DNA from: a candidate division WOR-3 bacterium
GTDB lineage: Bacteria > Hydrothermota > Hydrothermia > LBFQ01
NCBI GenBank assembly: GCA_027050205.1
Contig: JALUCS010000007.1
Coordinates: forward strand, 458-63,702
Length of the DNA stretch: 63,245 nt
Direction: 5' to 3'
Made by a program: the position numbers and the translations under genes. A model generated the notes under the pieces. It was not told where the DNA came from. It did no database searches and saw only the letters and a list, made by a program, of their open reading frames with translations. Below, piece by piece: positions 5,567 to 26,035 of the stretch (the stretch's first letter is position 1; each line of letters starts with the position of its first letter).

Positions 5567-6246
5567 TGTGGCCCTTCAAAGGTAAGGGGACCTGGCTCCT
5601 CTACGACCCCGACCGCCTCTCACCGAAGGCCTTCTTGGCTCGCTACCGGGACCTCGCCGGAAAGGTGGACGTCAAGGCCGTTCTGGTTGGCACGAGCTTC
5701 CTTGAGGGAGACATATGTAGGTCGGTTGAAGAGCTGAAAGAAGGGTTGGACGTTCCGCTCCTCCTCTTCCCCGGCTCCCACTACCAACTCTGTCCCCACT
5801 ACGACTACGTCCTCTTCCTGTCCCTACTCTCCGGGCGTAATCCGGAGTACCTCATAGGGGAACAGGTCAAGGCCGCACCTACCATCAAACGCCTTGGGTT
5901 GAAGGTGATACCGACGGCCTACCTCCTCATAGACGGCGGCACCTACACGGCTACGGAGTTCGTCAGCAACACCAAGCCGATACCGAGGGAGAAGACCGAA
6001 CTCATCCTCGCCCACGCCCTTGCGGCCAAATACCTCGGTTTCACGGCCGTATATCTGGAAGCGGGGTCGGGGGCCATCCTTAGCGTACCCCTAAAGGCCG
6101 TTGAGGTGGTAAAGCGGGAGGTAGGCCTACCTCTCATCGTAGGTGGGGGGATACGCTCCAAGGAGGAGGTTGAGGAGTACCTCAACAGGGGAGCGGACGT
6201 CGTAGTCATAGGGACGGCCGTTGAGGACGGAGACCTGTCCCTATGA
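5566..6246 (+). CDS. Geranylgeranylglyceryl phosphate synthase family (GGGPS/PcrB, group II-like)
   Basis: LYDPD, LFPGS, SLLSGRNPEYLIGEQV, YLEAGSGA, VGGGIRS and VVIGT motifs. Confidence 0.9.
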   Translation: MWPFKGKGTWLLYDPDRLSPKAFLARYRDLAGKVDVKAVLVGTSFLEGDICRSVEELKEGLDVPLLLFPGSHYQLCPHYDYVLFLSLLSGRNPEYLIGEQVKAAPTIKRLGLKVIPTAYLLIDGGTYTATEFVSNTKPIPREKTELILAHALAAKYLGFTAVYLEAGSGAILSVPLKAVEVVKREVGLPLIVGGGIRSKEEVEEYLNRGADVVVIGTAVEDGDLSL

Positions 6247-7026
6247 TCAGCCGAGGAGTACGTCCAGAAGGAGCATTATTACGGCCCCGATCATAACTCC
6301 CCACGTGGCTACCCTCTCGTGTCCCTTGGCGTGGGTCTCCGGTATTATCTCGTCGCTGACGACGTAGAGCATAGCCCCGGCGGCGAAGCCCATGGCGTAG
6401 GGGAGGATGGGCTTCATGTAATAGACCGCAATCGCCCCCAAGAGGGCGAGGGGTATCTCCACCAGGCCCGACCTTATGCCCGTATAGGCGGCGTAGAAGG
6501 TACTTCCCAGACCGGCCGACATAGCAGCGAGGGAGACGGCGAGTCCCTCCGGAATGTTCTGGAAACCTATAGCCAGCATAACCTGAACGGCATCCTTGTA
6601 ATGGCCGGAACCGAAGGACACGCCTACGGCGAGACCCTCCGGCATGTTGTGCAGGGTTATCGCTATTATGAAGAGCCAAACCCCCTTTATCCGCCTCGCC
6701 CACTCCGCATCCACCTCCCCCTCCCTGATGGGGCCGTTGTTTCCGATGGGTAAGTGTTCGTGGGGGATGTAGTGGTCCGCAAGGTCCATAACCAAGGCCC
6801 CAAGCAGTATTCCCACCACGACCGGGAGGACACCCCCGTACTCAATGCCGGGCAGTATCAGGCTCGTGAAACTGGCCGTTATCATAACCCCGGCGGAGAA
6901 ACCGAGGGCGCCGTCCATCATCCTCTGGGAGGGATTCCGCCAGACGAGGACCAACAACGCACCCAACAGGTTTAGAAAGGAGGTAAAGGTACCTCCCAAC
7001 AGTGCCAGAAGTACGGGATTGTTCAT
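6247..7026 (-). CDS. ZIP family (GufA/ZupT) metal transporter
   Basis: AITLHNMPEGLAVG, QNIPEG and FAAGAMLYVV..EIIPE motifs. Confidence 0.93.
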   Translation of the reverse strand: MNNPVLLALLGGTFTSFLNLLGALLVLVWRNPSQRMMDGALGFSAGVMITASFTSLILPGIEYGGVLPVVVGILLGALVMDLADHYIPHEHLPIGNNGPIREGEVDAEWARRIKGVWLFIIAITLHNMPEGLAVGVSFGSGHYKDAVQVMLAIGFQNIPEGLAVSLAAMSAGLGSTFYAAYTGIRSGLVEIPLALLGAIAVYYMKPILPYAMGFAAGAMLYVVSDEIIPETHAKGHERVATWGVMIGAVIMLLLDVLLG

Positions 7027-7133
7027 AGGCTATTCTAAAGACGAACTGCAACGGAGGTCTATCGCCGTCGGTCTTCGGTGATGATGAATCGTCCTTTTGC
7101 GGTGTGATTCAAAATATTGCAGTAGGTCCAAAG

Positions 7134-7358
7134 GTATTGCACCGATGGGGTGAGGATCGTTCCGCAGTCCTATCAAACGGGGCAGTGAAATTTTAAAGAT
7201 GGACTTCAATTTACGAAAGTGAGCCTTTATGTTTCCTAAATAGGGACTAGCAGTTTCCTAAAGGGTAAGTTTCATATTTTGAAAGTGCGTTCGTCTTCCG
7301 TCAAACGCCGAATGGAACCCCAGACAACGGATAGGGATCCCTCTACCGGCTCAATACC
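7134..7358. repeat. Dispersed intergenic repeat, copy A
   Basis: Aligns by eye over ~210 bp with 15814-16023 (shared CCGATGGGGTGAG, GTGAAATTTTAAAG, TTTACGAAAGT, CCTTTATGTTTC, AAATAGGGA, ATCCCTCTACCGG). Confidence 0.85.
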
Positions 7359-7675
7359 GGAATCTAAGAGTTCCTTCCTCCTCCGCTCTTCGTTGAAGAA
7401 TTTGGCATTACGCCGATAGGGATCCGTCCCGTCCGTACCTTTCTGGTCTTTGGAAGTTTGGAACCGGGCTTCGGGAAGTACGACTGGTAGAAATCGGCAA
7501 TCCCGGTGAAGGCTGTATCACTCTTTTCCGAGTGCCGTCCCTTCCAAGGGTGTTGAAGGTGAGCGGTTTTGTAAAATAGGAGACCAGATTTTCCGAAGTC
7601 GGATTTGTAAGAACGGATCCGGAGGCGACCCCCTCCACTCTACGAATGGGGCCAACGTTCCACCCGAATAAAAAA

Positions 7676-7748
7676 TGGGGCCGGCAGGACTCGAACCTGC
7701 AACCCACGGATTATGAGTCCGCTGCTCTACCTATTGAGCTACGGCCCC
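7676..7748 (-). tRNA. tRNA with CAT anticodon (probably Ile2; elongator Met not excluded)
   Basis: GGGGCCG/CGGCCCC acceptor stem, TAGCTCAA D-arm, GCGGA-CTCATAA-TCCGT anticodon arm, GGTTCGAGTCC T-arm; CCA not encoded. Confidence 0.93.
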
Positions 7749-7789
7749 TTGAGGTGTATATTATATAGTGGAAGGGTGGGCCGTGTGGG

Positions 7790-8080
7790 TCACTTCTGAC
7801 GCCTCCGGGGTGCGAGGAGGCCAACGAGCTTGCTGACGACCGTCAGGAGGGAGAAGCCCTGTACCATCCTCTCAAGGGGCGTTAGGGTGCCTTCCAACCT
7901 CTCCGTCAGGCGGTTTATCCGCTTGAAGGTCTCCTCGGCGTCGTCTGCTATCCTCTCCATGGACAGTAGCATCCTGTCAAGGGTGAAGGAGATGCGTATC
8001 ACCAAGTACCAGACCGCACCTGCTATCGCTATCAGGGAAACGGAGGCGGAGATCATCAAAATCGCCGTCAGAATCTCCAT
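7790..8080 (-). CDS. Small membrane-anchored coiled-coil protein (DUF948-like)
   Basis: N-terminal TM helix followed by a helical region; ATG 8080 lies 8 nt after TAGAAT. Confidence 0.6.
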   Translation of the reverse strand: MEILTAILMISASVSLIAIAGAVWYLVIRISFTLDRMLLSMERIADDAEETFKRINRLTERLEGTLTPLERMVQGFSLLTVVSKLVGLLAPRRRQK

Positions 8081-8091
8081 ATTTGGCAATT

Positions 8092-9213
8092 CTACGGCTG
8101 CTCTTCCATCTCAAGTAGCCTCTCGTAGAGTTTCCTCTGCTCCTTACTCAACTTCGTGGGTACCTTTATGCGGGCCTTGACGAGGAGGTCCCCACCCTTG
8201 CCGCCCTTGGGGTCGGGTATCCCCCTGCCCTTGAGGCGGGCGAAGACCTCACCGTACTGGACCCCCTGCGGTACCTTCACCTTCACCCTCTCCCCCCGCG
8301 GGTCCGTTATCTCCACCTCGCCGCCCAAGACGGCCCTCGCCGGACTCAAATCCACCGTGAGGACTACGTCCCTCCCCTTCCTCTCGTACCGCGGGTCCGG
8401 TCTCTCCTTGACGTGTAGGACCAGCCTCCCGGTGCCGCCCCTCCCGACGTGGCCGGCGTTCCGGTATATGACCTTCTGTCCGGGCAGGACCCCGGCCGGT
8501 ATCGTGACCTCCCTCTCCACCTCCTCAACCTCGTAGCCGGAGCCTCCGCAGACCGGGCAGGTCTCCCCGCTTATCCCCGTCCCTCCGCAGTTCGGACAGG
8601 GCCTCTCAACCACCATCACGCCGAAGAAGCTCCTCCGGTGCTGCCTCACCCTGCCGGTACCACCGCACACCTGACAGGTCCTGGGGTTGAGTATCCCCTC
8701 CCCTCCGCACCTGTGGCACCGTACCTTCCTGCGGTACCTCACCCGGCGGGTGGTACCCATCACCATCTCCGGTACGGACAGCTCCACCTCAAGGTGTATG
8801 TCCAAGTCCTCCGGTCTCTCCCTCCGCTCCCTCCCTCTCCTCCTCCTGCCGAACACGTTCTCAAAGAAGTCTCCGAAGCCGAAGTCCCCGAAACCAAAGC
8901 CCTCGCCGAAGACGTTGCGGAGGATTTCCTCCAGGTCCATGTGCATAAAATCGTAGGCCGCCCCACCGCCCGGCACACCCCCCTCCGGGTCCATCCCCAT
9001 ATCGTAGAGCCTCCTCTTTTCGGGGTCGGATAGGACGGAGTAGGCTTCGCTTATCTCCTTGAACTTCCTCTCGGCCTCCTCCTTCTTCTCCGGAGGGACC
9101 CTGTCGGGGTGCCACTTCATCGCCAACTTGGCAAAGGCGGCGTCTATCTGCTCCTTGGTGGCGTTCCGGGGGACACCTAAGATCTCGTAGTAGTCCTTCT
9201 TCGTACCTCTCAC
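8092..9213 (-). CDS. dnaJ: Chaperone DnaJ
   Basis: J-domain (DYYEILGV, HPD), G/F region, four CxxCxGxG repeats, C-terminal GDLLV. Confidence 0.93.
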   Translation of the reverse strand: MRGTKKDYYEILGVPRNATKEQIDAAFAKLAMKWHPDRVPPEKKEEAERKFKEISEAYSVLSDPEKRRLYDMGMDPEGGVPGGGAAYDFMHMDLEEILRNVFGEGFGFGDFGFGDFFENVFGRRRRGRERRERPEDLDIHLEVELSVPEMVMGTTRRVRYRRKVRCHRCGGEGILNPRTCQVCGGTGRVRQHRRSFFGVMVVERPCPNCGGTGISGETCPVCGGSGYEVEEVEREVTIPAGVLPGQKVIYRNAGHVGRGGTGRLVLHVKERPDPRYERKGRDVVLTVDLSPARAVLGGEVEITDPRGERVKVKVPQGVQYGEVFARLKGRGIPDPKGGKGGDLLVKARIKVPTKLSKEQRKLYERLLEMEEQP

Positions 9214-11547: not shown

Positions 11548-13041
11548 ATGGTTTGGAAGGTGGGTATTTTGTCCGTTTATACGGTCCTCCTGCTCTTCTT
11601 CGGTCTGGTGTCCTTGAGGTACCTGTTCCACATCCTGGCCTTTTTCTTCCTGCGCCGTAAGTGGAGCCTCAAGCGGCCGGAGTTGAGGAGGTACCCTAAG
11701 GTTTGCGTTCAACTTCCCGTCTATAACGAGCCTTTCGTCGTTGAGAGGGTTATAAGGGCGGCAGCCCGGTTGAAGTGGCCGAGGGGCAAACTGGAGATAC
11801 AGGTCCTGGACGATTCCAACGACGAGACGCCGGCGGTGGTTGCAAAGGTGGTGGAGGAGCTGAAGAGTGAAGGTATAAACATCCTCCACGTTAGGCGTGG
11901 GAATCGGAAGGGGTTCAAGGCCGGGGCGTTGGCCTACGGTATGGAGTTGAGCGATGCCGAGTACTTCGCCATATTTGACGCCGACTTCGTTCCACCGGAG
12001 GACTTCCTCCTCCGAACCGTCCCCTTCCTTGAGGCTAACCCCCGTCTGGCCGGTGTCCAGACCCGCTGGGGGTTCCTCAACGAGGACGCCAGCCTCCTCA
12101 CCAAGGCCCAGGCCTTTATGCTGAACCTCCACTTCGTCGTTGAGCAGTTCGTCCGCAGTCGCCTTGGCCTCTGGATGACCTTCAACGGTACAGCCGGGGT
12201 CCTGAAGAGGTCGGCCGTGGAGTGGGCCGGGGGTTGGCAGACGGAGACCCTCACCGAGGACTCCGACCTCTCCATAAGGTTATACGACAGGGGGTACAGG
12301 ATCCTATACCTGCCCGACGTGGTTGTCCCCTCCGAGCTGCCCGACTCCGTCCTCGCCTTCAAGGCCCAACAGAAGAGGTGGGCCAAGGGCGGGGCGCAGG
12401 TCCTCCGGAAGCACTGGCGGAAGCTCCTCTCCCCCGAATGGCCTATGGGCTGGAAGATGGAGGTCCTCATGCAGACCTTCGGAAACGTCGGATATCCCCT
12501 CGGCCTCCTACTTATGCTCCTCCTTCCTCCCGTCCTCCACATCAAGTTCGCTGGCGACTACCCCCGCCTCTTCCTCCTCATGGGCATCTGGGCGGTACTT
12601 ACCATAGCCGTCGTCTGGCTGGCCTTCGCCGTAGCCCACGCCTTCGCCCGCAGGGACTGGAGGGCGCTCCTGATGGTCCCCCTCGGAATGGCCGTAGTGG
12701 GAGGCCTAGCCCTCAACAACACCAACGCCGTCCTTGAGGGCCTCTTTGGGGATAGGGGGGTCTTTGAAAGGACGCCAAAGGCGGGGGAGAGGGGTACCAT
12801 AACCGTCCGTGGCATAAGCAAGAGCCTCCTCGTCTCCAAACTGGAGGTGGCCTTCTCCGCTTACCTCCTCGCCCTCGTACTCTTGAGCGCCGTCACCTTC
12901 CAGCTCGTCCTCGGCCTGGCGTTGGCCACCACCTCCTTCGGCCTGATGTGGCTGGGGACCTCCTCCGTCATAAGGATAGAGGAAGAGGTGCCGGAGAGCG
13001 TCTGGGATTGGGAAGTGGAAGAGGTACGGGAGGCGGCTTAA
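11548..13041 (+). CDS. Processive GT2 glycosyltransferase (cellulose/mannan synthase-like)
   Basis: QLPVYNE, DDS, FKAGAL, FDADF, TED and QQKRW motifs; C-terminal TM helices. Confidence 0.9.
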   Translation: MVWKVGILSVYTVLLLFFGLVSLRYLFHILAFFFLRRKWSLKRPELRRYPKVCVQLPVYNEPFVVERVIRAAARLKWPRGKLEIQVLDDSNDETPAVVAKVVEELKSEGINILHVRRGNRKGFKAGALAYGMELSDAEYFAIFDADFVPPEDFLLRTVPFLEANPRLAGVQTRWGFLNEDASLLTKAQAFMLNLHFVVEQFVRSRLGLWMTFNGTAGVLKRSAVEWAGGWQTETLTEDSDLSIRLYDRGYRILYLPDVVVPSELPDSVLAFKAQQKRWAKGGAQVLRKHWRKLLSPEWPMGWKMEVLMQTFGNVGYPLGLLLMLLLPPVLHIKFAGDYPRLFLLMGIWAVLTIAVVWLAFAVAHAFARRDWRALLMVPLGMAVVGGLALNNTNAVLEGLFGDRGVFERTPKAGERGTITVRGISKSLLVSKLEVAFSAYLLALVLLSAVTFQLVLGLALATTSFGLMWLGTSSVIRIEEEVPESVWDWEVEEVREAA

Positions 13042-13064
13042 CCTCCTCCGTATAATCCCCTTAT

Positions 13065-14639
13065 ATGCTCTGGATCGTACTCGCGGCGGATACCGTAAAG
13101 GTTTTTTCAGCGTATGAACCTTCCCCACCGAGGGAGTATATCCCCCTGACGGTGGAGGAGTTGAGGGAGTTCACCCGCATAAACCGCTTTGAGCGGGCTA
13201 TGAGGGGAAAAACGGATGGAGGGAGTGGGAACGCCCCCACCTTCCTACCTTACCCTTCGGACACCCTCCTGAACGACTTTGAGACCATAGACTACACGGG
13301 GTGGATCCCACCCGACCCCCAGATGGCCGCCGGCTCCACCCATGTCGGGGTGGTGGTGAATACCAGCATAGCCTTCTACCGGAAGACGGACGGCTCCGAG
13401 GCGTACTTCAACACCCTAAGGGGCTTCTTCTCATCTGTGATACCCTCCGGTGGTTTGGCCTTTGACCCCAAGATAGCCTACGACATCCTCGCCGGACGTT
13501 GGCTCGTCCTCGCCCTGTACTACAACTACTCCTCCGACGCCTCCTACTACCTCCTCGCCGTATCCGAGACGGACGACCCCCTCGGAGGTTGGTACTTCTA
13601 CCGCTTAAACGCCAAGTACGACGATAACACCTACACCAACAACTGGGCGGACTACCCTTCCCTGGGCTTCAACGACAGGTGGATAGTACTATCATCGCAG
13701 CAGGTTGGCTCCGGCTATTACCCCAAGGTGAGGGTCCTGAACAAGGACAGCGCCTACAACGGTACCCTTAGCGGATGGACGGAGGACTTCGTAGATAGCG
13801 AGCTGGGCTGCATATACAACTGGCCGAGGATTTCCCGGTCAACCTACGACTACTCCGGGGACGTCTACGTGGTGTCCTACCGCTACCTATACAAGATCTA
13901 CGGCCCTACGAATAACCCCCAGCTTTCCCCCTGCATCACCCTCCCCCTCTCCTCCTACGGCTACCCTCCGGACGCCCCGCAGGGTGGTGGATACGACGAC
14001 CTTGAGGCCGTCCCCGCCACCTTTCAGGTGTATTACCTCAACGGCAAGTTATACTACACCTTCCACGAGGAGCATCCCCTAAACTCCTACTTAGTCGCCG
14101 GCAGGCTCGTCATCTTAGACACCGCTGGCAGCGTCCTTGAGGATATAGACTTGTACGAGAACGGCCTCTCGTGGTTGTACCCGGCCGTCTCCGTCTCCCC
14201 CAAGGGGTTGGCCGTCAGCTTCACGAGGGTGGGGACGGTTTCCGGCCAGTACCCCTCCGCCGCCTATATAGCCCGCGCCTCCTACGATACGGCCTTCTCC
14301 CCCGTAAGGGTGTATAGGGCAGGCCTCTCGTGGTACTACAACGACCACGGCTCCGGCAGGAACAGGTGGGGGGATTACTTCGGGGGGGGACCCGACCCCG
14401 TAGACTCCACCCTATGGGTCATAGCCGAGCTGCCCAAGGCCGGGAGCGACTCTTTATGGACGACCTGGGTCGCCAACGTTGGCTTCGGCTCCCCGCCCCT
14501 TGAGGTCGTTGAAGTGGGGGACGTCAAAGGTGCCTCGGCCGTATATACGGTGGATGGTAGGCGGGCCGATAGGGTACGGAGGGGCAGGATATACTTCCTC
14601 CTCAAAGGCGGGAAGGTGCGGAAGGTCTTAGTGCGTTAG
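13065..14639 (+). CDS. Secreted protein of unknown function with T9SS-like tail
   Basis: PPDP..AAG, DP+++YD, DYP.LG and RWGDY motifs; tail VYTVDGRR..GRIYFL..KVLVR. Confidence 0.75.
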   Translation: MLWIVLAADTVKVFSAYEPSPPREYIPLTVEELREFTRINRFERAMRGKTDGGSGNAPTFLPYPSDTLLNDFETIDYTGWIPPDPQMAAGSTHVGVVVNTSIAFYRKTDGSEAYFNTLRGFFSSVIPSGGLAFDPKIAYDILAGRWLVLALYYNYSSDASYYLLAVSETDDPLGGWYFYRLNAKYDDNTYTNNWADYPSLGFNDRWIVLSSQQVGSGYYPKVRVLNKDSAYNGTLSGWTEDFVDSELGCIYNWPRISRSTYDYSGDVYVVSYRYLYKIYGPTNNPQLSPCITLPLSSYGYPPDAPQGGGYDDLEAVPATFQVYYLNGKLYYTFHEEHPLNSYLVAGRLVILDTAGSVLEDIDLYENGLSWLYPAVSVSPKGLAVSFTRVGTVSGQYPSAAYIARASYDTAFSPVRVYRAGLSWYYNDHGSGRNRWGDYFGGGPDPVDSTLWVIAELPKAGSDSLWTTWVANVGFGSPPLEVVEVGDVKGASAVYTVDGRRADRVRRGRIYFLLKGGKVRKVLVR

Positions 14640-15634
14640 TAGGGAGGGGTTCGGAAGAGCAGGGCCTCAAGGAGGGGGAAGGCGTAGTGGCCGGCTCCGA
14701 GGGGGCCAAGGACGGAGGAGAGCATAAGGACGAGGCCCAGCCTACCCACCTTTGGGGGGACGTTCCGGTACGCCATAGTTAGGAGGAGGACGATAACGAG
14801 TATAGAGACCCAGCGAGGGTAGTCGTAGCCGACGGCGAAGAGGAGGAGGCCGGAGAAGGGGGAGAGCCTGACGGGGAGGGGGAGGGACGGGGTGGAGCGG
14901 AGGTATAGGACAGCGTAGCCTAAAAGGAGGAGAAGGGGCAGGAGGAAGTCCCACGGTCGCCTTGGGAACTCCGAGAGGACGTAAGACAGGTTGGTTTTGA
15001 GGACGTCCGAAACCCCAAGGGAGAGGACCTCGTAGGCACCGGGGACGGCTCCCTCCGGTACCGTAGAGGGCGGCCCCTTCCCCCATACGAGGAGGGCGAG
15101 GAGGACACCCAAACCGACCGTGGCCGTTAGGAGGGCCAGGAACCGGTCCTCCTCCCACAGGGCGGCCACCACTACGGGGAGGGCGTACAGGACGTAGGCC
15201 TCGTGCGTAAGCACCCCCAGGGCCGTAAGGACGGGGATGGGCCAGTACGGACCCCTCCGCCTGATGAGGAGTAGGGAGGTGGCCAGAAGGAGGAGGTTGA
15301 AGTGGTCGTACCTCCCCACGTCAAACCCCATATGTAGGGCGGTGGCGGGGGACAGGAGGAAGAGGAGGTAGAGCCGTACATCCTCCGTAAGAAACGTGAA
15401 GGTCAGGGCGAGGAGGAGGGAGGCGGTGAAGGTACCCCAGAAGGCGAAGAGTTTTAGCTCCCCGAAGGGTAGGGCGAGGGTGCCGACGAGTCCCCGCCTT
15501 ACGAAGCCGTAGGTGTAGTTGAGGTGGTAGTAAGAGGCCACCCAATCGCTCACTGCACGGCCGAGGGAGCCGAAGTAGAGGACGGGGACGAGGAAGAGCA
15601 GGGCGAAGGCGAAGAGAAAGAGGATGCGACGCAA
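14636..15634 (-). CDS. Polytopic membrane protein (possibly GT-C-like)
   Basis: About 9-10 hydrophobic segments; GFVRRGLVG and THE motifs; TAAAAT 6 nt before TTG. Confidence 0.6.
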   Translation of the reverse strand: MRRILFLFAFALLFLVPVLYFGSLGRAVSDWVASYYHLNYTYGFVRRGLVGTLALPFGELKLFAFWGTFTASLLLALTFTFLTEDVRLYLLFLLSPATALHMGFDVGRYDHFNLLLLATSLLLIRRRGPYWPIPVLTALGVLTHEAYVLYALPVVVAALWEEDRFLALLTATVGLGVLLALLVWGKGPPSTVPEGAVPGAYEVLSLGVSDVLKTNLSYVLSEFPRRPWDFLLPLLLLLGYAVLYLRSTPSLPLPVRLSPFSGLLLFAVGYDYPRWVSILVIVLLLTMAYRNVPPKVGRLGLVLMLSSVLGPLGAGHYAFPLLEALLFRTPPY

Positions 15635-17429: not shown

Positions 17430-17486
17430 TGACACGGGTTGACATCAAGTGTGCGACGGCAATATTCTTTTCTCTCCAAAAGGAGG
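17430..17486 (+). promoter_or_regulatory. Promoter and RBS of the Cys-peptide operon
   Basis: TTGACA 17439-17444, 18-bp spacer, TATTCT 17463-17468; TGACA direct repeat at 17430 and 17440; A/T tract upstream; AAGGAGG before ATG 17494. Confidence 0.6.
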
Positions 17487-17493
17487 TAGAATT

Positions 17494-17697
17494 ATGAGAA
17501 AGGTCGCCCTCATCTTAGCAACGGCTTACGTGATTCTCGGGACGGCGTTCGCTCTCTACCCCAAGAGGGTGGAGGCGAGGAAGAAGATCATCTTCGCTTC
17601 CGGTATCTCTATCAACGATGTTGTCTGCCGCTGTCCGAGCAGCGCTGCTTCGTGCTACTGCGCCTTCCTGGTAGATGATGGCAGCTCTTCGCAGTAA
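17494..17697 (+). CDS. Secreted Cys-rich peptide 1 (CRCPSSAASCYC)
   Basis: Strong SD; signal peptide ending VEA; CxCPx5CxC motif. Confidence 0.85.
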   Translation: MRKVALILATAYVILGTAFALYPKRVEARKKIIFASGISINDVVCRCPSSAASCYCAFLVDDGSSSQ

Positions 17698-17718
17698 AGG
17701 AAAGGGAGGTATAAGGCT

Positions 17719-17949
17719 ATGAAGCGGCTGATAGGCGCTCTCGTGATCCTCGCCTACGTGGTTGTAGGGCTGTACGTGGCCCTAAGGCCCGCGACCGTTA
17801 CCGCTAAGGGGCCATCTCCGGCAGATATATATCCCGGCAGCAAAGTGGTGATAGATGGGGGTACGTCAATACTCAAAGAGTCCGGAAGTGGCCCCTGGAT
17901 ATGCGCGTGTCCTGACAGCCACCGCACCTGCTACTGCCAGGTAGACTAA
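17719..17949 (+). CDS. Secreted Cys-rich peptide 2 (CACPDSHRTCYC)
   Basis: GGGAGGT SD; signal peptide ending VTA; same motif. Confidence 0.85.
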   Translation: MKRLIGALVILAYVVVGLYVALRPATVTAKGPSPADIYPGSKVVIDGGTSILKESGSGPWICACPDSHRTCYCQVD

Positions 17950-17967
17950 CACCCTTAAAATACGACC

Positions 17968-18705
17968 ATGTTAATCGTCGCCCTGGCTCCAAGTTACGAC
18001 CTCTTTCACTGCACCTATGGAGACAAGACCTACGCCCTCGTAGGGGGGAGGATAGTTTCGGGAGGGGACACCGTAAGGCTCTCCCCTCCCCCTCCCTCCG
18101 GTAAGTACAACTTCTTAGTCGGGTGCAACGACGGTTTCTTCGTAGTGGAGTGGTACAGGAGGAGGGTGCGGTACTATGACCCAGACGGAAATCTCAAGGT
18201 GAAATTCCTCATAAGGGCCGACCATACCCAGCCCCTCCAGGTCTTCAGGTACGGCGACCGGATAATAATGAACGCCTCCTCTCCGAGACGTCTTAGAGGA
18301 GCCAGAACCCTCAACTACGGCTACTACATCCAGATATACGATCTGAACGGGGTCTATGACACCTCCGCCTTCCCCATGCCCAGAGAGGTGGACAGGCTCG
18401 GATACAACGACACCTACACCTTCATGTACCTCAAGGGGGACACCGTCTATTACGCCTTCCACTTCTACCCCTGCGTATTCAAGTTGGACGCGAGGACCTT
18501 CAAGGTAGTGGGTAAGTCCTGCGGCCTCTTTCCCATGCCCAAACCCGGCCGTATCACCTACGAGAGGTACGGTAAGGATAGCGTCCCCCGGTGGCCGGAG
18601 TATCCGGACACCCTGCCCTCAATAGTCGCTCTGTACGATAGGGCGGGGAGGATGTACGTAAAGGTGTCTGATGGGAGAGAGGTTAAAGAACTTCCCCTTC
18701 GTTAG
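17968..18705 (+). CDS. Exported beta-rich protein, possibly a partial beta-propeller
   Basis: Blade-like units YYDPDGNLK, IYDLNGVY, KLDARTFKVV; short hydrophobic N-terminus. Confidence 0.55.
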   Translation: MLIVALAPSYDLFHCTYGDKTYALVGGRIVSGGDTVRLSPPPPSGKYNFLVGCNDGFFVVEWYRRRVRYYDPDGNLKVKFLIRADHTQPLQVFRYGDRIIMNASSPRRLRGARTLNYGYYIQIYDLNGVYDTSAFPMPREVDRLGYNDTYTFMYLKGDTVYYAFHFYPCVFKLDARTFKVVGKSCGLFPMPKPGRITYERYGKDSVPRWPEYPDTLPSIVALYDRAGRMYVKVSDGREVKELPLR

Positions 18706-19159
18706 CGTCCTCCTCTTCCTATTCTCCGCCTTCCTTTTGTGGAGGGTCAGCGTCCTCAAGGAGTACGAGGCCTTCGCCATGGACATCCTCCACAGGGTAC
18801 CCGCCCCCCTCGTCCTCTCCTCCGTAGGCAGGGGGACCCACATCGTCTACGTGCAACCTCCTACGGCCTGTATAGTGGCACCCGAAGAGTGGCGGAAACT
18901 CACCTCTCACCCGGCTACGGTCCTCGTTCTCCCTCACGGGGACGCCGAAGAGAGCCGGAAGTGGCTCAAGAGTATGAGGTACAGGGGGAAGGTCGTATTG
19001 GACACGGGGGAGGTCTTCCTGAAGCTCTTTAAGGTCTTCGGCGTCAAGCAGCCACCCCTGAAGCTGGTCGTTAAGGACGGGAGGATTGTATTCTACGAGG
19101 CCGGCCCCTCCGACGGCTCGGCCGTTTTGCGGGCTTATCATTTCTACTCAGGGAGGTAA
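18671..19159 (+). CDS. Membrane-anchored thioredoxin-fold-like protein with a single Cys
   Basis: N-terminal TM; YVQPPTACIVAPEEW; VVLDTG..FGVKQPPLKLVVKDGRIVF resembles a TlpA/AhpC C-terminus. Confidence 0.5.
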   Translation: MGERLKNFPFVSVLLFLFSAFLLWRVSVLKEYEAFAMDILHRVPAPLVLSSVGRGTHIVYVQPPTACIVAPEEWRKLTSHPATVLVLPHGDAEESRKWLKSMRYRGKVVLDTGEVFLKLFKVFGVKQPPLKLVVKDGRIVFYEAGPSDGSAVLRAYHFYSGR

Positions 19160-19161
19160 GT

Positions 19162-21270
19162 ATGGTAATTTTGTATGCACTTACTGGATTCACGGATAGC
19201 GTTTTTACGCTCCCTAAGTTGAGGGACGTGGAGATAGACGGAGAGCTTGAGAGCGTCTGGGACTCCGCCCTAACCTTCAAGGACTTCCGGCAGCAGTACC
19301 CAACACTTGACGGGGACGTACCCTATCCCACGACCGCCAAGGTCTTCTATACGGACAAAGCCATATACGTCGCCTTCGTATGCGAGGGCAGAAAGCCCGT
19401 CCTCCAGAGGGGCAAGCGCGGTTCCCTATCTCCCGACGAGGTCTCCTTCACCCTTGACCCCTACGACGCCACAGGCAAGAGGTACTACGGATTCTTCGCC
19501 GACCCCTTCGGGAACAGGGGAGACGTTGAGGTGAACTCCGGTATGTTCAATTCACAGTGGGACACGGAGTGGGAGGCGGCCGGTAAGATAACGGATAACG
19601 GCTACATCGTTGAGATGAGGATCCCCTTCAAAGCCTTCCGGTACCGGAGGGGGAACGTATGGGGGATGGCCTTCGGCAGGGGGACGGCCGACGGATACAG
19701 TTTCCGGATACCTCTTAACCGCAAGGGGATCTTCCCCGATATGCTGAAGGTAAGGCTCTCCCCTCCCCTCTCGTGGGCCTTGACCCTCATGCCCTACATC
19801 ACCTACCGGAAAGACTCGCTCTACAACCTCTGGATAGGGGAGTACGAGAGGTACGAAAGGGCCTACGGCGGCGGGGACGTAAGGCTAACCCTTGAGGATA
19901 ACTTCGCCCACCTGACCGTAAAGCCCGACTTCTCCAACGTTGAGTCCGACCCCTACTACATAAACGTCGGCCGCTACCGGTACTTCCTCCAGGAACGGAG
20001 GCCCTTCTTCACCCACGATATGGACCTCTTCCAGCCCAACTTCAACGCCTTCCTCCCCTACACCATGCTTCTATACACCCGCAATATCGGAATGGACGAT
20101 TACGGGAACGAGCTCCCCATAACCTTCGGCCTGAAGGGGGGGCTGTCGCTGTTCGGGACGAACGTTGCCCTACTTACGGTGAGGACGGACTCCGGCCAGA
20201 TGTGGAACGCCCTCCGCACCAACTACCGGGGGAAGAACATCGCCGTTGGAACCTTCCTCGCCAGATACACCGGTACCTATCCGTACCCCGACTTCAACAA
20301 CCCCGGCAGTTTCATAGCCATCAGGGATACTAATGTCCTCGCGGATGTGGATGTGACCTTCAACTACGGCTACTTCCAGGGCGGGTTCGTCGCGATGCAC
20401 GCGGACTACTACGACGATCTCGGCGGTTGGCGGAGCGGGTGGACCAGGGCCTTCGGTTTCGGGTACGAGTCCCAGGAGTGGAATGTTGGTTTCTCCTACA
20501 GCGAGATAGACTCCCTCTTCTACGCCGAGAGGATAACCTACATGCCCGCCGCCGGTTCAAAATACGCCGGATTCACCATCCACAAGACCTTCTTCAACCT
20601 GGGGAAGTTGAACTACCTCGGTGTTGGGACGGAGTTTAGTGTGACCAGGGATGCCGGTGAGCCTCTCTCCAAGTTCGTCAGCCCGTCTCTGGGCCTCTCC
20701 TTCGGGCGGGGACACAGCATCTACCTCTCGTCGGACCTGGGGGACGCCTACAGTTACGACCCCTTCCGCGACACGTTGGTGCATTACTTCTCAAGGGATT
20801 TCAGGCTGTCCTCCTACTTCAACGTCAGGGCCAACTACCTCGGTATGTGGTTCTCCACCGGAAACCTGTACAACTACGCCACGGGGCAGCTCGGAGACTA
20901 CTCCACGCTTAACCTGAACCTCCCGTGGAGGTTCTCGGAGTTCTTCAGGACTTCTGATGCCGTAAGGGTGTGGCTCTACCCCGGAATGGACCCCACCTAC
21001 TCCAACATCCTCCGCCTCACCTTCTCCCTCGGAAACCTCGCCACCGTCCGCACCGGCTGGGAGAAGAACGTCCGCAAAGGTGAGAGGGGTCTCGTCGGTC
21101 TATACGATCGCGTCTGGGTCTTCCTATCCTTTGAAAAAGGTCTTACCGGCTTATACGTCTCCTTCAATACTAAGCTCAATCCCACCGACACCCTCAACAT
21201 CAACCCCTTCAAGTACGAGAGGGCGGACTACATCTTCGGTGTCAAGTTCAAGGGGTACCTTAGACTATGA
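19162..21270 (+). CDS. CBM9-like domain fused to DUF5916-type beta-barrel
   Basis: IDGELESVW, AIYVAF, WDTEW, GYIVEMRIPF; TVKPDFSNVESD, ERRPFF and YTRNIG motifs. Confidence 0.8.
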   Translation: MVILYALTGFTDSVFTLPKLRDVEIDGELESVWDSALTFKDFRQQYPTLDGDVPYPTTAKVFYTDKAIYVAFVCEGRKPVLQRGKRGSLSPDEVSFTLDPYDATGKRYYGFFADPFGNRGDVEVNSGMFNSQWDTEWEAAGKITDNGYIVEMRIPFKAFRYRRGNVWGMAFGRGTADGYSFRIPLNRKGIFPDMLKVRLSPPLSWALTLMPYITYRKDSLYNLWIGEYERYERAYGGGDVRLTLEDNFAHLTVKPDFSNVESDPYYINVGRYRYFLQERRPFFTHDMDLFQPNFNAFLPYTMLLYTRNIGMDDYGNELPITFGLKGGLSLFGTNVALLTVRTDSGQMWNALRTNYRGKNIAVGTFLARYTGTYPYPDFNNPGSFIAIRDTNVLADVDVTFNYGYFQGGFVAMHADYYDDLGGWRSGWTRAFGFGYESQEWNVGFSYSEIDSLFYAERITYMPAAGSKYAGFTIHKTFFNLGKLNYLGVGTEFSVTRDAGEPLSKFVSPSLGLSFGRGHSIYLSSDLGDAYSYDPFRDTLVHYFSRDFRLSSYFNVRANYLGMWFSTGNLYNYATGQLGDYSTLNLNLPWRFSEFFRTSDAVRVWLYPGMDPTYSNILRLTFSLGNLATVRTGWEKNVRKGERGLVGLYDRVWVFLSFEKGLTGLYVSFNTKLNPTDTLNINPFKYERADYIFGVKFKGYLRL

Positions 21271-21482
21271 CGAGGTTCCTCTTTGCTCTCGGTTTCGGGG
21301 CGCTGTTGGTTGCGGGTAGCCCACCGGCGGAGGCGAAGAGGGGGAGGGATATGGACCTCGGAATGAAGGTGAAGGTCCAGGTGGGCGATAGCACCTTAAT
21401 GCTGTGCCGCTGTCCGACGAACTACGGCAACTGCTTCTGCACGCCGAAGGGGATGATAGACGAGAGGGACGTAGGGAGGTAG
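21267..21482 (+). CDS. Secreted Cys-rich peptide 3 (CRCPTNYGNCFC)
   Basis: ATGA-coupled to the upstream gene; signal peptide ending AEA; same motif. Confidence 0.82.
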   Translation: MTRFLFALGFGALLVAGSPPAEAKRGRDMDLGMKVKVQVGDSTLMLCRCPTNYGNCFCTPKGMIDERDVGR

Positions 21483-21541
21483 GTTAGGGCCTCTGTCGGG
21501 GCAACAGGGGGCGTCTTTATCCCATCCGCCCTACGTCCCTC
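21464..21541. terminator. Long hairpin between convergent genes
   Basis: GAGGGACGTAGGG (21464-21476) pairs with CCCTACGTCCCTC (21529-21541) and encloses an inner imperfect stem. Confidence 0.5.
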
Positions 21542-21561
21542 CCCTATGGACGTCTGTTATC

Positions 21562-23763
21562 TCACTTCAGGAGGAACTTCTGCTCCTCCTCGCTCTCAAG
21601 CTCCTCAATCTCCTTTACCTTCGTCCTCTTGAAGTTCCGGCTGTAGGAGTAGGAGAGGGAGAGGGTTATGACAGGTTTGGCGTATTGGGTTGTGGCGTGG
21701 CGGTAGAAGTTCTCGCCCGTTACGGTCAGGTCCTCCTTAAAGAGGGGGACGGGGTCGGTGATGCCGGCGTACACGTTAAAGCCCCTAATGCTGAAGTTGG
21801 CGCCTATGTCCAGATAGTGGTACGGGGCCACGCTCCCCCACACCAACCTGTAGGCTCCGGAGTATCCGTATCGCACCTGAAGTTGGACCGAACTTAGGTT
21901 TAGGCTCAAGACGGCGTAGGCCGACAGGTAATCGGAGGATACGTCCTCGTACTCGTACCGCATGGGCGATACGCCCCCCATAACGCCGACGAAACCCATA
22001 AGGAAGGCCTGAAGGGAAAGGTCAATGCCGTACTTCCTGCCGTAGCCCTTTGAGGATACGAAACGGTAGAGCGTTACGTCGTAGCCCTCAAACTTGCTCT
22101 CCCTGACGTCCTGTACGTTTTCGGTTGCGTCGTAGTACGCCTCGGCCGACAGGGATACGGGACCAAAGGCCCTCATCGCCCCAAGTTGTGCCTTGTAGTA
22201 GTACTCCGGGAGGAGGTTGGGATTGCCGAGCTGAACCAGATAGGTGGTCTGGACGACGTACATCGGGTAGATCATATAGTAGGGTGGCCTCCATATCCTC
22301 CGGCTAAAGGCCGCGTATATCTGACTTCCGGCAAAGCTTGTACTGACATTAAGGGATGGGAAGAGGTCTAGGCGGTTGATCTTGATGGTGTTCATAGAGC
22401 GGTCGGTGTACTCCGCCCTCAAGCCGAGACTGTAGTTGAAGCGGCCCACCTCGGAGGTGTAGAGCAGAAAGGCCGAGTGTATGTCCCTCCTGTATTTCAG
22501 GGTTTGGGGTGGTATGTCGGGGTAGGATATGCTCCCCAGAGCCTTCGTCGTGTCCAATCTGGATCCCCTTGACGGGTAGACTTTGATACCTAACTTCAGG
22601 TTCTTCAAGGAGTACTTGAGGGACAGGTACCCCCGGTAGGACTCCTCGTATCCTACCGTCTTTATGCCATAACCCGTGGTGGTATCCACCAAGTAGCTAA
22701 TGGAGCGGGGATAGTAGGAGGCGTATATCTCAAGGTTCAGCAGGCCGGACAGGACGTTCCTGGTGTGGGTAAAGGAGAGGAAACCCCTCGGTTTCCTTTC
22801 AAGCGAATGCTCGTAGAAGTTGCCTTCGTTTATCCCCTCCCTAACGGTCGGGATCGTTACGCCGTACTCGTTGAAAGCCCCACCCACCTCCAATTGGGTG
22901 GCCTCGGTCTGAAAGCCTGCGGATAGCCTTAAGATCCTACTGCACTGGTCCCAGATGCCCCTCACCTTCAGGGTGTCCCCTTCGTACACCATCACCTCTT
23001 CCCGTTTGAACTTCGTGCTGTTCTTTTGGGCGGAGAACTTTACGAAGTAGGAGACCTTATCAAGCGATAGGTAGGCGGCTAAGTTCCCCTTCAGGGTGCC
23101 GTGGTTGTTGCCCGTCACATCCGCCGAGAGACTGTAGCCACTGCTCCTGCGTTTCTTTAGGACTACGTTTATTATGGCATTACCCTCGGCGTCGTACTCG
23201 GCGGAGGGGTTGGTTATCACCTCTATCCGCTCTATCTGCGAGGCCGGTATGTCCTTCAGGGACAGGTTCGTAGGATGCCCATCAACGAAGAGGATGTAGT
23301 TGGAGCTTCCCCTTATCTTTACGTTCCCCTGCATGTCCACATCAACACCGGGGACGCTTCTAAGGACGTCCGAGGCGCTACCTCCACGACTGACTATATC
23401 CGCCGAAGGGGTTATAACCTTACGGTCCACCTCGTACCTCACCTTGGAGGGCGTAGCCTCAACGACGACCTCCTCCGTCCTTATGGGCTGTGGGGAGAGG
23501 GCTATCGTACCGATGTTGGTATCCCTCTCTATCTCAACCGGACCGACGAAGGTCTTCCTGTAGCCTATGAAGTCTGCGGAGATGAGGTATCTGCCAGCTT
23601 TGACGTTTTTGAGGACGAAGACCCCCTTCTCGTCCGTGTATGTGCCGGTCAGTTTGGACGTATCCTTTGGGTTGTGGAGGATTACGACGGCGTAGGCCAT
23701 AGGCCTGCCGCTTTCGGAGTCAATCACGCGTCCTGAAACGGTCAGAGCCATTACGATTAGCAT
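21562..23763 (-). CDS. TonB-dependent receptor / outer-membrane beta-barrel
   Basis: N-terminal carboxypeptidase-regulatory-like domain (SGRVID, TDEKGVF, FIGY); plug LRSVPGV..IRG..IERIEVITNPSAEYDAEG; GLRAEY, GNPNLLPE; AAGGAGG SD. Confidence 0.9.
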   Translation of the reverse strand: MLIVMALTVSGRVIDSESGRPMAYAVVILHNPKDTSKLTGTYTDEKGVFVLKNVKAGRYLISADFIGYRKTFVGPVEIERDTNIGTIALSPQPIRTEEVVVEATPSKVRYEVDRKVITPSADIVSRGGSASDVLRSVPGVDVDMQGNVKIRGSSNYILFVDGHPTNLSLKDIPASQIERIEVITNPSAEYDAEGNAIINVVLKKRRSSGYSLSADVTGNNHGTLKGNLAAYLSLDKVSYFVKFSAQKNSTKFKREEVMVYEGDTLKVRGIWDQCSRILRLSAGFQTEATQLEVGGAFNEYGVTIPTVREGINEGNFYEHSLERKPRGFLSFTHTRNVLSGLLNLEIYASYYPRSISYLVDTTTGYGIKTVGYEESYRGYLSLKYSLKNLKLGIKVYPSRGSRLDTTKALGSISYPDIPPQTLKYRRDIHSAFLLYTSEVGRFNYSLGLRAEYTDRSMNTIKINRLDLFPSLNVSTSFAGSQIYAAFSRRIWRPPYYMIYPMYVVQTTYLVQLGNPNLLPEYYYKAQLGAMRAFGPVSLSAEAYYDATENVQDVRESKFEGYDVTLYRFVSSKGYGRKYGIDLSLQAFLMGFVGVMGGVSPMRYEYEDVSSDYLSAYAVLSLNLSSVQLQVRYGYSGAYRLVWGSVAPYHYLDIGANFSIRGFNVYAGITDPVPLFKEDLTVTGENFYRHATTQYAKPVITLSLSYSYSRNFKRTKVKEIEELESEEEQKFLLK

Positions 23764-23867: not shown

Positions 23868-25025
23868 TTAGGTATGTATTCTTCTTTTGATAATATTTTC
23901 CCATTCAACGAGATGCTCCCTCTTTATGTCAGACGATTTCCGAAACTCATCCTTTAAATTTTCCGTATAACGGTCCAGAAATTCCCTAAGGTCCGGTACT
24001 ATCCTTAAATAGTACTTCAGGGATGTGAATATCCCGTTCGGTATGATCTCAACGCCGTACTTCACCTTTATGTCCCTTATGGCGTTTAACAGTTCATCGT
24101 AGTCGCCTCGGAAGTTGGGCTCCGCCGTGGTGAGGATGTAGTACTTCCTTACGGATGTACCCTTGACCTTGTTTAGAACGTCCTCTATCATCATTTTGTC
24201 AATAGGGATGTTATGCTTTACCTCCACTATTTCAAAGGGTGTTCCGTCCGAATTGTAGATCTCTATGTCTCCAAATCCCCTGTACCTGTCCGAAGCTGTA
24301 TGAGTTCTTAAGGGTTTTAAGATTTTATCCTCGTATATTTTTACATTTTCCTCAAAAATTTGATATATTGTATATATGGCAACTACCGGCAGGCGGGATG
24401 ACCTTCTCGTGGAAAAGTGCTCTCTAAGCATCCCGATCACTTCCTCTATGGTAAGTATGGCTTTCCTATCCCCCACTTTCACCTGTGCTACCAGCTCGTT
24501 TTCCCGCTCGTACTTCTCAAAGAGGAGGTATAGGAGGGTGAACAGATAGGCGTACGGATCGGCCCCGTTCTCCTCAACGTCATTTAAGATTGATAGAAAG
24601 GCCCTCTTAACCGCGCTGTTCCTTATCTTCCCCGGAAAGTCCATAGTAAAGGGATGGGGTTGCTCAATGGATCTGGTGAGCCAACCGCTCTCCTTCGGTG
24701 CAAACCTAATGAAATGTTCCTTCAACCACGGAGTTACGACGTTCGTGTCCAGACTCCGCCCTGAATACCCCCCTTCAAACTCCTCACGGTGCAATCTAAC
24801 GTCCTGTTCTGGCGATACTATCTTTTTAAGCAGGGAGGTTATCGCGACCGCCACGACTGACTTCTGGTTCTCTACGTTGGCTATCAGGGTTCTGGCCCAC
24901 CCCCTCTGCTCACCGGAAAGTTTCCCCATAAGCCCCTCGTCCCCTCGCTTCCGACTTTCCTTAACCTCCCGAAATATCCTATCCAACACCTCCCGGTACC
25001 TTTCCCACTCCCTCATACGAACCAC
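23868..25025 (-). CDS. Putative type II restriction endonuclease (PD-(D/E)xK)
   Basis: GDIEI...EIVEVKH catalytic-type motif; overlaps the MTase gene; visibly more AT-rich than its neighbours. Confidence 0.75.
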   Translation of the reverse strand: MVRMREWERYREVLDRIFREVKESRKRGDEGLMGKLSGEQRGWARTLIANVENQKSVVAVAITSLLKKIVSPEQDVRLHREEFEGGYSGRSLDTNVVTPWLKEHFIRFAPKESGWLTRSIEQPHPFTMDFPGKIRNSAVKRAFLSILNDVEENGADPYAYLFTLLYLLFEKYERENELVAQVKVGDRKAILTIEEVIGMLREHFSTRRSSRLPVVAIYTIYQIFEENVKIYEDKILKPLRTHTASDRYRGFGDIEIYNSDGTPFEIVEVKHNIPIDKMMIEDVLNKVKGTSVRKYYILTTAEPNFRGDYDELLNAIRDIKVKYGVEIIPNGIFTSLKYYLRIVPDLREFLDRYTENLKDEFRKSSDIKREHLVEWENIIKRRIHT

Positions 25026-26035
25026 TCCAGCGTACGTTGAGGTTTTACCTCTGCTATCCTTCTTCGGGCGTACTCGCAGTACTTTGGGTTTATCTCTATG
25101 CCGATGAAGTGCCTTCCCATTCTCTTCGCTACCACGCCCGTCGTGCCGGACCCCATGAAGGGGTCCAAAACCACGTCCCCCTCCTTGGTGAGGAGTTTCA
25201 GGAACTCCTGAACGATGTATTCGGGATACACCGCCGGGTGGATGTTCCCCTTTATAGTCTCCACGGGAGATTCAATTACGTCCCTTTTGATAGATCGCCC
25301 GTATATCCTTATGATGGTGAAACCGTCCCGTTCTATGTGTATCTTCCTACCACCTTCCTGCCCACCGTAAGGCATGGCATGTACTCCCCTTATCTTCATC
25401 CTGAAACCCTCAATTCGCCCCTCCTTAACCTCCCGTATTACCTCCATCAGCTCCCGCTTCGCCCGGCTCTTCTGCTCCGGTGTTAGATCCGACATTTCTA
25501 TAAGTTCAAAGTACCTCTTACCCAGATTGTTCCCCCTTTTTCTCTTCGTCCTCCTCAAAAAATCAACGTGGTTCAGGAAGGCGTCCCTGTTGAAATAGTA
25601 ATCGCCGGACTTTACAAAGATGAAGAAGGGTTCCGTAGCCGGTACGAGTTTCTTCCTGTCCTGCTTGGGAACAGGGTTGGGTTTTACCCAGGTCACCTCG
25701 TTTATTAGCTTTACCCCTGTCCTCTTCATCGCCTCTATAGCAAACCGATAAGGCACCAGTAGAAGGCTCCCCTCCTCGTACTTATCGCCCAAGTTGAAAA
25801 CTATACTCCCTGTGTCCTTCACAACCCGAACGCACTCTCTGAATATAACCATCAAATTGTCAATGTACTCCTCAACCGTTCGCTCGTTTCCTATTCCCCC
25901 CGCTCCGTAATCCCTCTGCCTGTAGTACGGGGGACTCGTTATTACAAGGTCTACGCTGTTGGATGGAAGGCGTCTCAAAACCTTCGCCGCATCACCGCAT
26001 ATAACTTTATCCAGAAATCCTTCCAACTCCCCCAT
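25013..26035 (-). CDS. Beta-class amino DNA methyltransferase (probably N4-cytosine)
   Basis: VITSPPY motif IV near the N-terminus, HPAVYP, and DPFMGSGTT motif I near the C-terminus. Confidence 0.93.
   Translation of the reverse strand: MGELEGFLDKVICGDAAKVLRRLPSNSVDLVITSPPYYRQRDYGAGGIGNERTVEEYIDNLMVIFRECVRVVKDTGSIVFNLGDKYEEGSLLLVPYRFAIEAMKRTGVKLINEVTWVKPNPVPKQDRKKLVPATEPFFIFVKSGDYYFNRDAFLNHVDFLRRTKRKRGNNLGKRYFELIEMSDLTPEQKSRAKRELMEVIREVKEGRIEGFRMKIRGVHAMPYGGQEGGRKIHIERDGFTIIRIYGRSIKRDVIESPVETIKGNIHPAVYPEYIVQEFLKLLTKEGDVVLDPFMGSGTTGVVAKRMGRHFIGIEINPKYCEYARRRIAEVKPQRTLEWFV

Follow-up and report, generated by a model that had tools for sequence, protein, structure and literature searches.

The locus described here raises the question of what three small, cysteine-rich and apparently exported peptides do in an operon that also encodes a beta-propeller, a thioredoxin (Trx)-like protein and an outer-membrane barrel. 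It lies in a stretch of 63,245 nucleotides from a candidate division WOR-3 bacterium (contig JALUCS010000007.1; hereafter the window), where tgt is followed by a promoter candidate, the peptide genes pepA and pepB, the propeller, Trx-like and barrel genes, the third peptide gene pepC and, convergently, a TonB-receptor-like gene. The block propeller-Trx-barrel-pepC was kept in five of the six other genomes of the genus that were examined (in G002 it was split over two contigs), G003 being the sole one without a match. This operon type is real and conserved, and it is without a published description: neither it nor its peptide family was found described in the literature searched, which lacks most subscription papers and supplements. 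In our reading, to which we give a probability of about 45%, the operon encodes an envelope module dedicated to folding and passing on small, disulfide-stapled proteins that are exported. An earlier note, made from the sequence alone, had proposed an exported cysteine-peptide system that was either disulfide-stapled or metal-binding. Its genes turned out to be real, its peptide family uncatalogued, the neighbours recurrent and disulfides a fitting assumption, whereas the inclusion of the TonB receptor, the analogy to bufferins and metal capture, and the strict form of the motif as a family signature had to be given up.

The three small open reading frames (ORFs) with a putative leader and a four-cysteine motif were all present where they had been reported. 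When the 2,052,029-base genome was scanned in six frames, C.CP.{5}C[YF]C gave exactly three matches, all within this 4-kb stretch, and the looser C.C.{6}C.C added one match in an unrelated long protein. The putative leaders of pepA, pepB and pepC, as read by eye, comprise a basic N-end, a hydrophobic core and an AxA-type site. The pepC orthologues in five relatives were 68-92% identical, and the dN/dS of the predicted mature core was 0.03-0.15 in 9/15 pairs with dS above 0.6 (0.17-0.28 for the whole gene; close pairs were noisy, with values up to 0.54). These substitution patterns indicate that pepC is under purifying selection. A chance origin of the motif, or of the ORFs themselves, was rejected on the basis of genome-wide uniqueness, the database homologues and the conservation and selection of pepC; judged from their sequences, the peptide ORFs are real genes and presumably translated. 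The ATGA overlap between the barrel stop and the pepC start was confirmed and was kept in 6/6 genomes. Strong Shine-Dalgarno sites had been thought to set two of the peptide genes apart; AGGAGG (17481) and GGGAGG (17704) are indeed present; the barrel gene has a strong site too, and a crude genome-wide count over long ATG ORFs placed GGAGG or AGGAG ahead of 149 of 760. The TTGACA promoter candidate at 17439 scored 10/12 and is kept in G002, but six such sites were found compared with 2.8 ± 1.8 in shuffles, and the promoter call is therefore weak alone.

Two observations on secreted proteins elsewhere in this genome can be added. Most likely secreted proteins have a very short hydrophobic leader without Lys or Arg (e.g., those at window positions 17968, 19162 and 23763), and 64 of the 77 tail-bearing Met-start proteins had no K/R at positions 2-6 according to crude start calls; the three peptides have classical long leaders. 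In addition, a 206-aa protein (G000:C117:15021-15641, minus strand) carries an 8-Cys cluster ending in CxC-x6-CxC and then a tail like that of type IX secretion system (T9SS) substrates, with no propeller gene adjoining.

The search for the motif in other genomes, which the earlier note had suggested, revealed an unnamed family characterized by a leader, a Gly and CxC-x6-CxC. With iterated profiles, members were detected in two groups: 14 of 272 genomes from the phylum, counting this one, and 8 of 151 from a class grouped around an Aminicenantes record. The full hidden Markov model search gave 37 matches at E ≤0.001, of which 33 appear to belong to the family, 26 as new members; the other four, long repetitive false positives, were dropped. 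In an alignment of 48 short members the four Cys were invariant, the Gly was nearly invariant and the loops were all different; the rows were hand-picked, so that the Cys and Gly invariance is partly by selection, and long forms as well as G233 and G099, with variant Cys spacing, were left out. The two Cys pairs were separated by 6 residues in 43 members, by 7 in 3 and by 5 in 2, and Pro followed the second Cys in 31. Only 19 of the 48 fit C.CP.{5}C[YF]C, which thus does not serve as a family signature. The expectation that the family is uncatalogued was borne out, since none of the 48 had a relevant match in Pfam, NCBIfam or PDB; the sequence-atlas matches for the peptides were all under 0.9. 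Longer forms of 120-220 aa bear the motif once or twice.

The neighbourhood recurs together with the family. A propeller was found at 22 of 24 peptide loci, a Trx-like protein at 16 and the barrel at 9; these loci, from 22 genomes, include several cut by contig ends, many of the rows trained the profiles, and kin are not independent. The loci scored as lacking a propeller were those of G101, where the neighbour did score with an earlier profile, and G392, where a 351-aa gene lies directly downstream. Propeller cases independent of training came from G252, G095, G101, G105 and eight Aminicenantes-class genomes; moreover, the peptide profile (E 1.4e-9) and, in a separate search, the propeller profile (E 1.4e-23) both led to G252, and four neighbours in Aminicenantes-class loci passed the Pfam cut-off for DUF5128. 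Outside these groups, profile searches of sampled genomes did not find the peptide family in 151 genomes of the order Bacteroidales or in 86 of the phylum Krumholzibacteria, and gave one weak, non-family match in 151 genomes of the class Ignavibacteria. A motif-first DNA scan with one codon variant of CxCPx5CYC yielded 120 matches in genome contigs from 9 of 64 database parts, 19 of them in an ATG ORF and none in a small leader-bearing ORF; its sensitivity is low, since even the broader strict motif is matched by just those 19 of the 48 members. In viral contigs the codon-variant pattern gave 91 loci, 19 in ATG ORFs, of which one passed a crude leader filter and appeared spurious. The word-indexed protein search reached close relatives only, and a metagenome scan with the G040-type propeller returned one locus with frame breaks, in which no peptide was seen.

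Some of these loci suggest that the peptides could instead be signals, with the propeller as a periplasmic or surface receptor feeding a sigma-54 or extracytoplasmic function (ECF) sigma factor response. Sigma-54 activators adjoin the operon in G080 and G299 (Pfam) and in G233 and G073 (sequence inspection), -24/-12-like TGGC elements were read by eye ahead of the peptides in G080 and G233, and the loops are highly variable. However, the window operon has no adjoining regulator and its promoter is sigma-70-like, and no cytoplasmic output domain was recognised in any of the five genes, and we consider a signalling role unlikely.

Several loci of the wider family have further features of their own. 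At L144 (G080:C7, 3012-9786) a sigma-54 activator, peptide, propeller, Trx and barrel are followed by a radical S-adenosylmethionine (SAM)/SPASM gene and an ATP-binding cassette (ABC) permease. The long forms at L070 (G169, 5793-8373), L143 (G168), L409-L411 and L151 have one or two Cys hairpins, each with a YVGED-type extension, and have propeller-Trx fusions as neighbours, with an arsenate-reductase-like domain additionally fused in G169.

The gene downstream of pepB had been called propeller-like, and its AlphaFold2 (AF2) model agrees with this: the 245-aa protein was modelled (predicted local distance difference test (pLDDT) score 82) as a beta-propeller of about 21 strands, in which about five blades were counted by hand. 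Its best structural match among 48,161 representatives was 3s9j, a Bacteroides DUF4221 protein (Z 14.1, root-mean-square deviation 3.6, 219 aligned), with which NHL domains tie within 1 Z as a match to the propeller fold. The protein itself has no Pfam match; its homologues match DUF5128, and the profile link to a DUF5128-positive homologue was scored by hhalign at 86% (E 5e-6). Within the genus the propeller is 74-91% identical, and in G168, G169, G103 and G070 propeller and Trx are fused in this order.

The Trx-like protein had been described as membrane-anchored with one Cys. The single Cys (C67) was present in all six genus members, whereas the protein has no Pfam match of its own, and its predicted Trx fold derives from homologues. 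By alignment C67 is at the first CxxC position, where the window protein reads TACIV and homologues read DCxxC or SCASC; CxxC is present in the homologues of G040, G080, G082, G233, G252 and G258. Pro129, at the presumed cis-Pro position, was invariant in 17 aligned rows, and the family profile matched StoA (3erw, best E 2.8e-7) and ResA structures.

The barrel gene had been read as a CBM9 domain followed by a barrel, and both parts were recovered: DUF5916 (PF19313) scored 35.4 bits against the Pfam curated cut-off of 22.6 and CBM9_1 (PF06452) 34.9 against 23.4, and the AF2 model (pLDDT 87) contains a CBM9 domain with matches at Z 17-18 and a barrel of about 24 strands with fold matches at Z 15-17 and no close solved relative. 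The DUF5916 barrel family is common (30 of 41 genomes) and, going by ten distant loci, usually lacks peptide neighbours. Paralogues of the barrel, 64-76% identical to it, directly follow the gene of a 558-aa ABC exporter and have neither propeller nor peptide alongside. The TonB receptor, which the earlier note had placed with the operon, is by its genomic distribution an incidental neighbour. Its orthologues (94% identical in G004, 93% in G002 and 84% in G006) are on other contigs than the operon, behind an ABC-type gene; in G001, G002, G004 and G005 different genes come after pepC.

The close association of peptide, propeller and barrel could also mean that the peptides are structural or regulatory subunits of an envelope complex, acting as a lid, as a missing blade or as a plug for the barrel, and are not released. 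The window propeller has only about five blades, pepC is strongly conserved and coupled to the barrel gene in 6/6 genomes, peptide and propeller often occur 2:2 in Aminicenantes-class loci (once as peptide-propeller-peptide-propeller), and the motif heads the longer 120-220 aa proteins of G095, G101, G168 and G169 in the manner of a docking module. However, full-length propellers of 330-344 aa (G040, G080, G252) are still accompanied by one or two peptides, and none of the five operon-holding relatives retains pepA or pepB, which are either replaced or absent there. We regard a subunit role as rather unlikely.

The four cysteines could form disulfides or a Cys4 metal site. To judge from crude ORF calls and a home-made tail profile, 121 proteins of the genome have a T9SS-like tail, 114 of these contain Cys and 79 (69%) have an even number; in shuffles the proportion was 49 ± 4.5% (0 of 2000 reached 69%), and among likely cytoplasmic proteins it was 40% (125 of 315). 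PorV (PF19572) was not found in the genome, although it encodes these 121 proteins. Because of the even-Cys bias in exported proteins, disulfide stapling, which had been one of the two original options, appears the better reading. DsbA-like and DsbD/CcdA-like genes are present in the genome. The remark that no radical SAM, MNIO or YcaO enzyme is nearby also stood: YcaO was not found genome-wide, MNIO (DUF692, PF05114) gave no match in this 93.5% complete genome while the positive control was matched in Caulobacter, and of the eight radical SAM genes over the cut-off none is on contig C7. The G080 locus, with its radical SAM/SPASM gene after the barrel, was the only one seen with a possible maturase. 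A bufferin, or any radical SAM- or YcaO-type peptide made on the ribosome and modified after translation (RiPP), was thus rejected for the window, and the bufferin and metal-capture analogy is not supported, given the lack of MNIO and of a conserved His.

Metal binding by unmodified peptides is a separate proposal, in which four cysteines would chelate Cu or Zn for capture or detoxification and the barrel or the TonB receptor would take up the complex. The four invariant Cys do form two CxC pairs, the stretch is present in runs labelled hydrothermal vent metagenome, and the top atlas match of pepC was a DUF2282 cluster (0.80, a lead only). However, only 17 of the 48 members have a His close to the motif, the TonB receptor is unlinked and no metal-transport or metal-regulator genes were recognised in the loci read. 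Moreover, the genome lacks MNIO, while bufferin metal binding is reported to need thiooxazoles (PMC11626156). We therefore hold chelation to be quite improbable.

Comparison within the genus disclosed a division among the peptides that the earlier note had overlooked. Neither pepA nor pepB was found in any of the five relatives that hold the operon. In G002 the promoter region and the pepA leader are kept up to the VEA site (83% amino acid identity over 30 residues, the likeness ending at the leader end) and are followed by a different protein of 195 aa, which contains 11 Cys and ends in a T9SS-type tail. A similar leader in G005 precedes a related Cys-rich cargo of 190 aa. The tails of these two cargo proteins scored 24.7 and 22.9 bits, respectively, against a cut-off of 23. 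In G004 the slot is empty, and in G001 and G006 a leader of this kind is on the propeller itself; these two are at the genus base of the propeller tree, which leaves both the fused and the split state as candidates for the ancestral one. In run X5, which belongs to a different study from that marked as the possible source, pepA-pepB is covered by one contig (17549-17973), and in a second contig 17578, the first base past the leader, is joined to 17938 with unknown letters between, a joint of modest weight given a likeness threshold of 80 and a shorter side of 30 letters. The alternative cargo in relatives and the two X5 forms imply a polymorphic slot whose left border coincides with the predicted signal-peptidase site. 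On this comparison of sequences, pepA and pepB occupy a strain-variable cargo slot behind a shared predicted leader and pepC is the fixed member. Separately, G073:C119 (L149 end) ends in a pepA-like leader behind a sigma-54 activator, cut by the contig end, and G073:C300 (L065) begins inside a window-type propeller; the two may be one locus.

A cargo that varies between strains, two forms of the slot being present in a single vent sample, would also be expected of bacteriocin-like toxins for which the propeller provides immunity, and small, disulfide-rich secreted products paired with a propeller could be seen in the same light. Such a function is very unlikely in our estimate: the net charge of the mature peptides, calculated from sequence, is about +1, -1 and +3 and hence not strongly cationic, the selection on pepC is purifying and not diversifying, and none of the 48 members matched a bacteriocin family in Pfam or NCBIfam. 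A further possibility, which we consider doubtful, is a new secretion or display pathway. The hairpin would be a docking tag for the propeller-thioredoxin pair and the barrel an outer-membrane translocon, and recombination at the signal-peptidase site would swap the cargo behind one promoter and leader, so that strains of one vent community export different products.

The folding module that we favour would work as follows. The leaders would take PepA, PepB and PepC through Sec and be cleaved after the AxA site, whereupon the four Cys would form two cross-strand disulfides closing the CxC-x6-CxC hairpin on a Gly-initiated strand. The membrane-anchored ResA/StoA-type protein would hold, reshuffle or proofread these disulfides through its one Cys, the propeller would bind the hairpin and act with the Trx protein as one unit, and the DUF5916 barrel would release or display the product. 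PepC may serve as a constant subunit or substrate, and strain-specific products for recognition or competition between strains may be encoded in the first slot. This scheme starts from the genes, their order and conservation, the propeller and barrel folds of the models and the exchange of cargo behind one leader; peptide-propeller recognition, the redox role of the Trx-like protein and expression are proposals from genes and models. It is preferred because the Cys are invariant and the loops variable, because the propeller is present at 22 of the 24 loci and can be fused to Trx, and because of the CxxC in Trx homologues, the even-Cys bias, the Dsb-like genes, the Cys-rich slot cargo and the ABC-linked barrel paralogues.

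Several observations weigh against the folding module. Propeller-Trx units without such a peptide occur in G028, G075 and G256-G258, the barrel is missing from most peptide loci, and ten distant barrel loci that were read contained neither peptide nor propeller. The direct link between the window-type Trx and other Trx homologues is weak (hhalign E 0.0035, probability 9%). The slot appears dispensable because it is empty in G004 and because in G001 and G006 the leader is on the propeller. With regard to the oxidant source, DsbB and VKOR were not found in the 93.5% complete genome, and the even-Cys test is subject to the crude calls on which it was built.

The operon belongs to none of the known systems with which we compared it, namely the sublancin type, NVEALA, NHLRC2/SOQ1 and bufferins. 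Sublancin-type operons encode a disulfide-bonded exported peptide together with a dedicated thiol-disulfide oxidoreductase and use a double-glycine leader and a peptidase-ABC exporter. Here, too, an exported peptide is encoded with its own membrane thioredoxin-like protein, for which a folding role is proposed, but the putative leader is of the AxA Sec type, the five genes include neither a peptidase-ABC exporter nor a glycosyltransferase, and propeller and barrel are added. The Trx-like protein resembles the StoA/ResA/TlpA thioredoxins in its family profile matches, its apparent membrane anchor and the Pro at the presumed cis-Pro position, whereas in the window genus only the first Cys is kept and CxxC is lacking. 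In Bacteroidota, the NVEALA (PF14055), DUF5128 and DUF4221 loci presumably place a small secreted Cys peptide by a six-bladed propeller and a Trx-fold protein. The likeness lies in the best propeller match, the Bacteroides DUF4221 protein BVU_1028, and in the DUF5128 matches of the homologues; the window propeller itself has about five blades and no Pfam match. Here, however, the DUF5916 barrel is added, the peptide family was absent from the 151 Bacteroidales genomes searched, and NVEALA (PF14055) matched none of the 48 members at E 0.05.

A Trx domain is also paired with a propeller in NHLRC2, known from animals and some bacteria, and in SOQ1 of the plant thylakoid lumen. NHLRC2 combines a TlpA/ResA-like Trx domain and a beta-propeller with a cleft between them thought to bind a ligand, and seven bacterial homologues are reported to have no conserved neighbours (PMC6107167); SOQ1 is described as membrane-anchored and redox active (10.1101/2024.11.01.621559). 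These proteins have Trx followed by an NHL propeller in one chain, whereas here there are two genes or a propeller-Trx fusion, the propeller is of the DUF5128/DUF4221 type, the CC(I/V)NC (CCINC) motif is replaced by TACIV in the window, and the operon includes peptide genes. Bufferins are MNIO-modified, Sec-exported RiPP metallophores (PMC11626156), and the peptides share with them a small precursor and conserved Cys; judged by eye, their leaders would also suit a Sec signal peptide. The differences are the lack of MNIO/DUF692, the propeller, Trx and barrel neighbours and the other Cys spacing; none of the 48 members matched a catalogued bufferin family such as DUF2282 in Pfam or NCBIfam.

The present locus adds the CxC-x6-CxC family and the range over which it occurs, separates a fixed from a swappable peptide, and dispenses with the TonB receptor and the analogy to bufferins. 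No function for DUF5128/DUF4221-type propellers or DUF5916 barrels was found in the literature searched, and the operon offers small synthesizable candidate ligands for both; the one-cysteine thioredoxin suits trapping experiments, so the question is directly testable. The operon may represent, in bacteria and at operon level, a counterpart to the pairing of Trx and propeller in NHLRC2 and SOQ1. The 48 different loops make up a natural library of hairpin mini-protein scaffolds, and the slot is a case of apparent cargo exchange at a signal-peptide boundary. In addition, the organism appears to form disulfides in exported proteins though neither of the two oxidant-source proteins sought was detected.

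Features of the peptide operon and its surroundings (window positions, except in the last row).
Feature	Position	Strand	Evidence
Sigma-70-like promoter candidate	17439..17468	+	TTGACA, spacer 16 or 18 nt, AATATT or TATTCT; 10/12 consensus
Predicted shared leader (pepA codons 1-28, ending VEA), putative border of the swappable cargo slot	17494..17577	+	Comparison with G002 and run X5
pepA, four-Cys mini-protein of 67 aa, of which 39 aa are the predicted mature part	17494..17697	+	CRCPSSAASCYC; database homologues with 94% and 84% identity
pepB, 76-aa four-Cys mini-protein, predicted mature part 47 aa	17719..17949	+	CACPDSHRTCYC; spanning contig in run X5
Beta-propeller protein of 245 aa, a short form within the DUF5128/DUF4221-like group	17968..18705	+	AF2 model, fold matches, profile link
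Membrane-anchored Trx-like protein, 162 aa, one Cys (C67)	18671..19159	+	Alignment with CxxC homologues; StoA/ResA profile matches
DUF5916 outer-membrane protein with a CBM9-like domain at the N-terminus and about 24 barrel strands	19162..21270	+	Pfam, AF2
pepC, 71-aa four-Cys mini-protein, coupled to barrel gene, conserved member	21267..21482	+	CRCPTNYGNCFC
TonB-dependent-receptor-like gene (PF14905, Plug, CarboxypepD_reg), neighbour outside the operon unit	21562..23763	-	Pfam; orthologue placement
Barrel paralogue behind ABC exporter	G000:C73:19298-21358 (L024); also G001:C58, G002:C62, G003:C31, G009:C43		

Directly upstream of the TonB receptor, window positions 23868-26035 (minus strand) encode a DNA methyltransferase (PF01555, E 2e-53) together with a protein of 385 aa that is probably a restriction endonuclease (weak SacI-like match). 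On the other side of the locus, upstream of tgt (11548-15634), there are a GT2 glycosyltransferase (11548-13041), a 524-aa protein of unknown nature and a 332-aa membrane protein with a weak AZOBR_p60025 match (E 0.001). Elsewhere in the genome, a 158-aa ORF (G000:C117:12128-12604, minus strand) lies inside an apparent 23S rRNA sequence; it has what we take to be a LAGLIDADG-like motif and is possibly an intron-borne homing endonuclease.

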